Shown: in pieces, positions 1,686 to 1,980 of the stretch
Layout: every line of letters starts with the position of its first letter
Numbering within the stretch: the first letter of the stretch is position 1
From: a virus
Lineage: Duplodnaviria > Heunggongvirae > Uroviricota > Caudoviricetes
Strand: one strand, 5' to 3'
DNA: 12,311 nucleotides
Virus record (IMG/VR): IMGVR_UViG_2563366990_000020
Coordinates: 1 to 12,311 of that record
Program-made: the position numbers and the translations under genes
Notes under the pieces: model-generated
Told to the model about the DNA's origin: nothing
Seen by the model: the letters and a program-made list of their open reading frames with translations, nothing else
Databases searched by the model: none

Positions 1686-1705
1686 GTGCAAAAGTGTGCA
1701 AAAGT
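1686..1705. repeat. perfect tandem direct repeat GTGCAAAAGT x2
   Basis: Read directly: GTGCAAAAGT at 1686-1695 and again at 1696-1705, followed by G. The reverse complement contains TTTTGCACA twice with 10-bp spacing. Confidence 0.9.
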
Positions 1706-1869
1706 GATTTTTGTTGCCACTCCCCGCCAGGCCGCGCCAGTTCTGGCTTTCCTGATTTTTTCGTTTTCGTCGCCGGATCCTTTTTCAGATCTTCGATCGT
1801 GACGTAATTTTAAAAATCTCTTGTTATTCAGTGCATTAAAATTTTTCGGGATCCTCAGAAAGCCGGAGT

Positions 1870-1980
1870 TTTTGCACACTTTTGCAAAACCTTGCACAAA
1901 GTGCAAAACCATTCAGAAGGGAAAACCTCAGTAATGGCGCGCCCTGGCGGGGTGTTTTGCACCCATTTCGATTTGCAAAA
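1870..1980. repeat. cluster of TTTTGCA(C/A) motif copies in both orientations, including palindromes
   Basis: TTTTGCACA at 1870-1878; palindrome TTTTGCAAAA at 1880-1889; inverted repeat TTGCAC-AAA-GTGCAA at 1892-1906; TTTTGCACC at 1955-1963; ATTTGCAAAA at 1971-1980. Same motif family as the tandem repeat at 1686-1705. Confidence 0.75.

Follow-up and report, generated by a model that had tools for sequence, protein, structure and literature searches.

What reads the short repeats clustered in both orientations between positions 1686 and 1980 of the window, the whole stretch of 12,311 nucleotides analysed here, is the question raised by this locus. A first interpretation, made from the letters alone (the sequence-only reading), had proposed DnaA boxes of a cryptic origin or of a DnaA-regulated promoter, or else operator sites for an unidentified DNA-binding protein. 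Our results give good grounds, short of certainty, for assigning the segment 1611-2314 to a cos (cohesive-end) region, used for DNA packaging, in an integrated prophage of P2/HP1 type (Peduoviridae, Irrigatiovirus-like). The repeats are most likely recognition elements beside cos, rather than a replication origin, and the cluster of 1686-1980 most likely constitutes the att-proximal arm of cos.

Genomic setting and layout of the repeats

The window covers the right end of a prophage of E. coli. In a sister genome (E. coli Z1323MEC0001, NZ_CP148318), which was 98.7-98.9% identical over this region, the prophage was found between dmsA and serS and carried genes for an integrase, a repressor, Cox, a P2 gpA-type replication endonuclease and ogr, as well as P2-type portal, terminase, scaffold and capsid genes together with an HP1-type tail/baseplate module. 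The repeat region is placed between the last baseplate gene of this P2/HP1-like prophage and a hok/sok cargo module. The tail operon, on the minus strand, closes with the genes of three proteins of 241 aa, 180 aa (Pfam HP1_ORF34, 5e-54) and 557 aa (baseplate protein; phrog_2258, 2e-241), which match orf33-35 of HP1.

The 704 bp between hok/sok and the tail operon (1611-2314) were non-coding, in agreement with the sequence-only reading, according to which no coding feature accounted for the motifs. The sole sizeable ORF, 1607-1912(-), of 101 aa, had no family match and was not kept as a protein beyond near-identical copies, and a RefSeq 'hypothetical protein' of the sister genome covers part of it. 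No Rfam match was obtained in 1611-2280 at E <= 1, the other Rfam matches (a weak isrK and miRNA) all being located outside the array, and a search for σ70-like promoters in 1200-2500 found none. A terminator-like hairpin was detected at 1950-1964. The features recognised in the region are collected in Table 1.

Table 1. Coordinates of the features recognised in and around the repeat cluster; negative offsets are counted from the start of the putative core (2003).
Feature	Positions	Strand	Basis or remark
Two TTACGT elements, at about -389 and -380 from the core	1614-1628	+	Same sequence as the right-arm repeats
Distal repeat pair, tandem GTGCAAAAGT x2	1686-1705	.	TGCA at -316 and -306
GC-rich element CCGCCAGGCCGCGCC	1719-1745	.	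Inverted copy of 1929-1955
Central block: GATC cluster, inverted GACGTAA (1801-1807) and TTTTAAAAA tract	1776-1840	.	Conserved in relatives
Middle array, four TGCA-containing elements about 10 bp apart	1870-1909	.	TGCA at 1873, 1883, 1893 and 1902 (-130, -120, -110 and -101)
GC-rich element GGCGCGCCCTGGCGGGG	1929-1955	.	Partner of 1719-1745
Proximal pair, TTTTGCACC (1955-1963) and TTTGCAAAA (1972-1980)	1955-1980	.	TGCA at -45 and -29
Putative cosN core GGCGTGTGCGGGGTAGCGCC, 20 bp	2003-2022	+	Conservation and virion ends of relatives; lies to the right of the cluster described in the sequence-only reading
Right-arm repeats ATTACGTC, TTTACGCG and GTTACGTC, on the baseplate-gene side	2024-2048	+	TTACG(T/C) family
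Second right-arm array, four TTACG(T/C) elements about 10-12 bp apart	2145-2186	+	Match to the repeat family
Intrinsic terminator closing the baseplate/tail operon	2282-2300	-	Equivalent hairpin kept in relatives

All the motifs described earlier for 1686-1980 were found in place, among them TTTTGCACA (1870-1878), TTTTGCAAAA (1880-1889) and the inverted repeat TTGCAC-AAA-GTGCAA (1892-1906), and their enrichment was confirmed: TTTGCA matched 17 times in the 12,311 bp when both strands were counted, and nine of these matches fell within 293 bp (1687-1979; binomial P 5e-11). A second repeat family, TTACG(T/C), absent from the earlier description, had 10 of its 21 window matches in 1600-2185 (binomial P 1.3e-8). 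Also absent from it were two inverted-repeat pairs, one joining 1683-1703 with 1870-1890 and the other (I1) joining 1719-1745 with 1929-1955 over 27 nt at 85% complementarity; these pairs were interleaved (A B ... A' B'), not nested. The repeat cluster was single in the phage genome: in SW5, a Salmonella phage related to the prophage, it was the densest stretch of the whole genome and abutted the end junction, and in the rest of the window-lineage prophage just 5 matches were found in 22 kb.

The cargo beside the array was inspected as well. The hok/sok toxin-antitoxin module (1242-1610) lies directly beside the cos arm and contains a hok ORF at 1310-1450(-) with a Hok/Gef annotation and an Rfam sok match at 1439-1597(-) which, with 48 bits, stayed under the gathering score of 59; the sister genome has two tandem hok/sok copies, 722 bp apart. 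Downstream of hok, Rfam gave a weak isrK match at 1198-1288(-), whose 23 bits (E 0.016) are far short of the gathering score of 50, and a terminator-like hairpin (1279-1302) overlaps this match. An ORF at 209-1195(+) encodes a BRCT-domain protein (Pfam BRCT, 1e-8; phrog_36782) lacking about 90 N-terminal positions of the profile, and ORF 1-303 overlaps it in another frame, so that the BRCT gene may be frameshifted or split. This ORF sits in a cos-adjacent cargo hotspot in which relatives have AbiH (positions 4766-5731 of locus L003) or other genes, a hotspot that parallels the old/tin locus of P2 (PMC9122126).

Conservation of the repeats and of a core at virion DNA ends

For comparison, 106 related loci were gathered from bacterial genomes and viral contigs using the 557-aa baseplate protein as anchor, and three Irrigatiovirus phages of Salmonella (SI7, SW3 and SW5) were added, together with a second type of E. 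coli prophage. Positions 1690-2050 were kept as discrete blocks in elements from Salmonella, Citrobacter, Kluyvera, Buttiauxella, Rahnella and Erwinia. The alignment with these related prophages showed that the repeats are conserved, as TTTGCAAA / TTGCGCAA rather than in the DnaA-like form ending in CACA. In the relatives, the block homologous to the distal pair was GCGCAAAATTTTGCAAAA, the CCGCCAGC portion of the GC-rich element at 1719-1745 was kept, and the central block read GATCGTCACGGAAA...TTTTAAAAACATCA.GTTATCCAGT..GTTAG and held an inverted CACGGAAA. On the baseplate-gene side, the columns corresponding to 2024-2048 were occupied by TTTCCGTC and CTTCCGTC, and the second array (2145-2186) was partly kept as GCGTTACAG..CGTTTTACGCG. 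At each of the three homologous sites the relatives have ACGGAA and the window ACGTAA, which represents a concerted change. The far edge of the conserved region was the TTACGT pair at 1614-1628, adjoining the hok/sok module.

Two repeat types were distinguished. The TGCAAA-type set contained 26 distinct sequences, namely 22 relatives and four near-identical copies of the window sequence. TTTGCA repeats were absent from a sister clade of 50 distinct sequences, with a baseplate protein at most about 61% identical, and CTGAAA / TTTCAG was found there at the same positions (-30, -102, -111, -121, -131 and about -310). The mean number of motifs per sequence was 8.2 for TGCAAA (n=26) and 4.9 for CTGAAA (n=50); both peaked near -30, from -110 to -140 and near -310, the motif at about -310 being present in TGCAAA-type relatives and in the CTGAAA clade. 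The -29 position was common to the window, P2, P4, 186 and all the relatives examined. The adjacent cargo varied among relatives (hok, AbiH and others), and the repeats were fixed relative to the core.

The core itself was constant outside the window lineage: its 16-nt left part, GGCGGGTGCGGTGTAG, was identical in 76 of 76 distinct relatives of both clades when the sequences were anchored by a regular expression. The window lineage has GGCGTGTGCGGGGTAG, with two of the 16 core positions changed with respect to GGCGGGTGCGGTGTAG (3/23 when the flanking base is included). The third change is located 2 nt upstream of the core, and the same lineage also has ACGTAA for ACGGAA and TTTGCACA for TTTGCAAA. 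These changes in core and repeats may mark a distinct packaging specificity. Taken together, the invariant core and the clade-specific repeats at fixed positions suggest a conserved catalytic activity and a co-evolving phage protein that reads the repeats.

Six virion-derived GenBank records of relatives were found to break, truncate or duplicate exactly at the core. The SW5 record starts with GCACCCGCC... (GCACCCGCCTGC...) and ends with ...GGCGCTACACCGC (...GGAAACGGCGCTACACCGC). The ev015 record ends with ...GCAGGCGGGTGC and starts with a Nextera adapter followed by GTAGCGCC, and in ev040 the sequence ...GGGTGC runs on into adapter sequence. SI7 and SW3 are without exactly 7 nt, GGTGTAG, which are present in SW5 and in all prophage copies, and the ESSI-2 record has GCGGGTGCGGTGTAG at both ends. 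The overhang signal thus differed among the virion-derived records (a loss of 7 nt, or a duplication of 15 nt or of 2 nt), and the core was intact in the eight of eight integrated prophage copies that were inspected. None of the IMG/VR contigs ended at the core; in several proviral contigs, of about 30 kb, the cut merely falls at the last gene.

P2 has its cos site beside the portal gene, and at that place these phages have just 26-70 bp of intergenic DNA. We took 2003-2022 as cosN because of the virion ends, which are those of relatives and not of the window's own phage, the HP1-like map described below and the lack of room at the P2 position. The terminase most likely nicks within this core.

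Some of the public records may contain errors at this site. Positions 1-49 of the ev015 record (LR597649.1) correspond to the Nextera adapter, an adapter is embedded beside the core in the ev040 record (LR597638.1), and the SI7 and SW3 records (MK972712.1 and MK972714.1) are possibly short by the 7 nt GGTGTAG.

Comparison with known cos sites

The map resembles that of HP1, a Haemophilus phage (Hpunavirus, Peduoviridae) in which cos comes after orf33-orf34-orf35 and before attP and int. According to its GenBank record, from which the end structure was taken, the order is orf35, 192 bp and the right end, and then cosL, attP and int; the linear records of SW5 and ev015 have the same map. The right end of HP1 bears CACGGAAA three times and ACGTAA, like the relatives and the window, and its left arm contains TTCAG/CTGAA-type elements at -43, -54, -107 and -134. 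In contrast, HP1 had no alignable sequence similarity to the region, is A/T-rich and lacks TTTGCAAA elements, and its annotated 9-nt cosL, TCCTTCCCC, is unrelated to the GGCG... core.

The cos sites of P2, 186 and P4 have 19-nt 5' cohesive ends and a conserved core of 55 bp. Counted from the first base of the cohesive end, TGCA occurs at -123, -111, -101 and -29 in P2, at -124, -111, -101, -35 and -29 in P4, and at -124, -120, -111, -101, -35 and -29 in 186. In the window, counted from G2003, it occurs at -130, -120, -110, -101, -45 and -29, so that, with the GGCG starts brought into line, the three phages agree exactly with the window at -29 and -101 and to within 1 nt at -111. When the registers were compared by exact matching, offset 0 was the best or tied for the best of 161 offsets in each of the 12 pairwise comparisons. 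Furthermore, in P2, P4 and 186 the last 170 bp before the annotated cohesive ends were the most TGCAT-dense stretch of the genome, equalled only by segments overlapping it. An nhmmer profile of the region gave nothing significant against P2, 186 and P4 (the best E was 1.1 and not at cos), and the link to the P2-type cos is therefore drawn from architecture and register, not from alignment.

Other features are shared with these phages. The terminases are homologous, the core is G-rich and starts with GGCG, and the cohesive end of 186, GGCGTGGCGGGGAAAGCAT, resembles the core of the window. In 186 and P4, as in the window, two TGCA groups are separated by a GC-rich dyad, and a variable cargo/defence hotspot abuts this arm of cos (PMC9122126), the place that in the window is occupied by hok/sok and the BRCT protein. 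There are differences too: cos adjoins the portal gene in P2 and 186 but the baseplate genes and att in the window, the window element is TTTGCA(A/C)A instead of (G/T)TGCAT, and the window array has two groups, at -45 and at -306/-316, in addition to those of P2, 186 and P4.

The minimal cos of P2 is about 125 bp, and the array of the window reaches about 320 bp from the core. Longer flanks around the cos of P2/P4 increased cosmid transduction about 10^4-fold (PMC9594776). P4 shares little with P2 besides cos (PMC9122126), and the retention of the TGCA elements by P4 argues that a P2-type terminase needs them.

The lambda cos (cosQ-cosN-cosB, with the gpNu1 R sites and the IHF site I1) is alike in that a nicking site is flanked by repeated phage-specific elements, and it differs in that its small terminase belongs to an unrelated family (PF05944, not Nu1, in the window's phage) and in that the repeats of the window are present on both arms, out to about 320 bp. 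It is known that specificity classes of cos differ between related phages, as between lambda and phage 21.

Recognition of the repeats and alternative readings

The repeats are probably read by the phage terminase, whose genes lie outside the window. In the sister prophage it consists of a PF05944 small subunit (9.7e-37) and a large subunit with Terminase_6N/6C and Terminase_5 matches, which are 24-29% and about 40% identical to gpM and gpP of P2, respectively; the gpM homologue has the accession WP_338899504.1. The terminase would bind the phased elements on one face of the helix through its gpM-type small subunit, through the helix-turn-helix at the N-terminus of its gpP-type large subunit, or through the two together. 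Once bound, it would bend the DNA or wrap it, perhaps together with IHF, which may bend the A/T-rich central block, and the nuclease of the terminase would then be placed on the core. The arm facing attP and int presents three groups of elements, at -29/-45, at -101 to -130 (spaced about one helical turn apart) and at -306/-316, with GC-rich dyads and the A/T-rich central block between them, and the other arm is marked by the GACGTAA family (TTACGTC on the plus strand), which has one inverted copy in the central block.

In the large terminase of the sister prophage (positions 34444-36249 of locus L002), the N-terminal 60 residues correspond to a Terminase_5 / homeodomain-like helix-turn-helix. 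Its putative recognition helix reads RTVYHW in sequences of the window's clade, as against RIVYYW for the sister clade and PTVQSW for P2. This helix-turn-helix is a candidate reader of the cos repeats. The divergence of the small terminase between clades follows the overall phylogeny and is uninformative on covariation with the repeat type, and a search of the PDB by sequence retrieved no solved structure of a gpM-type small terminase. DNA recognition by P2-type terminases is, to our knowledge, poorly mapped.

An unlikely alternative is that the protein on the cos repeats is an architectural one from the host (IHF, Fis or HU), or a different phage protein, and that the repeats serve only to bend the DNA. 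The cosB of lambda uses IHF, A/T tracts and a 10-bp phasing are found here, and an IHF-like site (at most one mismatch to WATCAANNNNTTR) was detected near -180 in 23 of 80 relatives. However, the repeats are unlike the IHF consensus, the copy in the central block of the window has two mismatches, and the repeat sequence is swapped between phage clades that have the same enterobacterial hosts, which argues for a reader encoded by the phage.

The repeats might instead be operators or a promoter for the adjacent cargo (hok/sok and the BRCT protein) or for the small gene 1607-1912(-), since they occur in both orientations upstream of the 101-aa ORF, which overlaps the RefSeq protein of the sister genome, and since the old-tin promoter of P2 is near cosR. 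We regard this as improbable because no σ70-like promoter was found in the interval searched (1200-2500), the ORF is neither conserved nor matched by any family, and the cargo changes among relatives while the repeats stay in place with respect to the core.

A role as accessory sites of attP, for arm-type binding by the integrase or for Cox or IHF, is highly improbable. When the phage is circular, the region has the tail genes on one side and attP/int on the other, and the arm sites of the P2 integrase are tandem direct repeats, but in this prophage the arm-type sites were recognised as TGTCCA(C)A direct repeats on either side of the att core (about CCTGCGGG), far from the repeat cluster; moreover, cargo (hok/sok, AbiH or other genes) intervenes between the array and att, and TTTGCA is absent from the repressor-cox control region. 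Integrase arm-type sites, which the tandem 10-bp repeats had suggested, were therefore discarded, given the att core CCTGCGGG and its TGTCCA repeats elsewhere. Cox or repressor operators were rejected as well, the motif being missing from the control region, and so was a Mu-like transposon end (5'-TG...), which is at odds with the integrase, the att sites and the P2-type replication gene of the prophage.

The sequence-only reading was right in that the cluster looks like a non-coding set of protein-binding sites; its interpretation as DnaA boxes of a cryptic origin or of a DnaA-regulated promoter was not supported, and we give it a very small probability. The relaxed pattern TTWTNCACA matched five times in the window against 0.73 expected, with three of the five matches inside the repeat region, within 200 bp, and a GATC cluster and an A/T-rich tract lie nearby. 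Nevertheless, the strict box TTATCCACA was found in none of 80 sequences, and the three relaxed boxes belong to the window lineage only, as does the CACA end, the DnaA-like part of the motif. Over the 456-bp region, the relaxed box was absent from 18 of 26 TGCAAA-type sequences and from 47 of 50 sequences of the sister clade. What is conserved is TTTGCAAA, and its replacement by CTGAAA at the same positions in the sister clade indicates that it is not a site for the DnaA of the host. In addition, the replication gene encodes a P2 gpA-type rolling-circle initiator endonuclease, and gene A contains the annotated ori nick in the records of both P2 and 186. The other proposal, operator sites for an unidentified DNA-binding protein, was correct in spirit as far as sites for a DNA-binding protein are concerned; the term operator does not fit, because the cluster flanks the site of the virion DNA ends and is absent from the repressor-cox control region and from the late promoters.

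A structured non-coding RNA or an encoded small protein, suggested by the long inverted repeats and by the terminator-like hairpin at 1950-1964, is scarcely credible given that no Rfam match was obtained in 1611-2280 at E <= 1, that the inverted repeats are interleaved instead of nested and that the ORF is not conserved.

Assignment to a cos site removes a false lead, that of a cryptic origin or a site of the DnaA regulon. It also places cos in widespread enterobacterial P2/HP1-hybrid prophages, where none of the retrieved annotations marks it, and it provides concrete candidate recognition elements for P2-type terminases, which could be of use for the design of cosmids and transducing particles, for predicting the packaging of satellites by helpers and for fixing the mis-assembled ends of phage records. 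A cos site here would be an ordinary, if well-organised, phage feature, and the point worth following is the fixed scaffold with swapped sequences in the P2/HP1 superfamily. We put forward tentatively, as a possibility with the balance somewhat against it, that P2, 186, P4 and the HP1-like and Irrigatiovirus-like phages share one fixed, helically phased scaffold at about -29, -101, -111, -120 and -130 relative to the cos nick, on which lineage-swapped 'codes' define packaging-specificity groups. The codes would then be, equally tentatively, (G/T)TGCAT, TTTGCAAA or CTGAAA for one arm of cos and, for the opposite arm, either ACGGAA or ACGTAA. If this were true, the codes would decide which satellites, cosmids and co-resident prophages a terminase packages.

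Beyond the cos arm, a near-perfect palindrome resembling a LexA box, ACTGTATATAAACACAGT, was observed in ESSI-2 (positions 907-924 of locus L118). A similar palindrome (TACTGTAATTATATACAGTA in others) occurs some 450-500 bp away from the core in many loci of the sister clade and has no counterpart in the window; it recalls the SOS-controlled tum operon beside the cos of phage 186.
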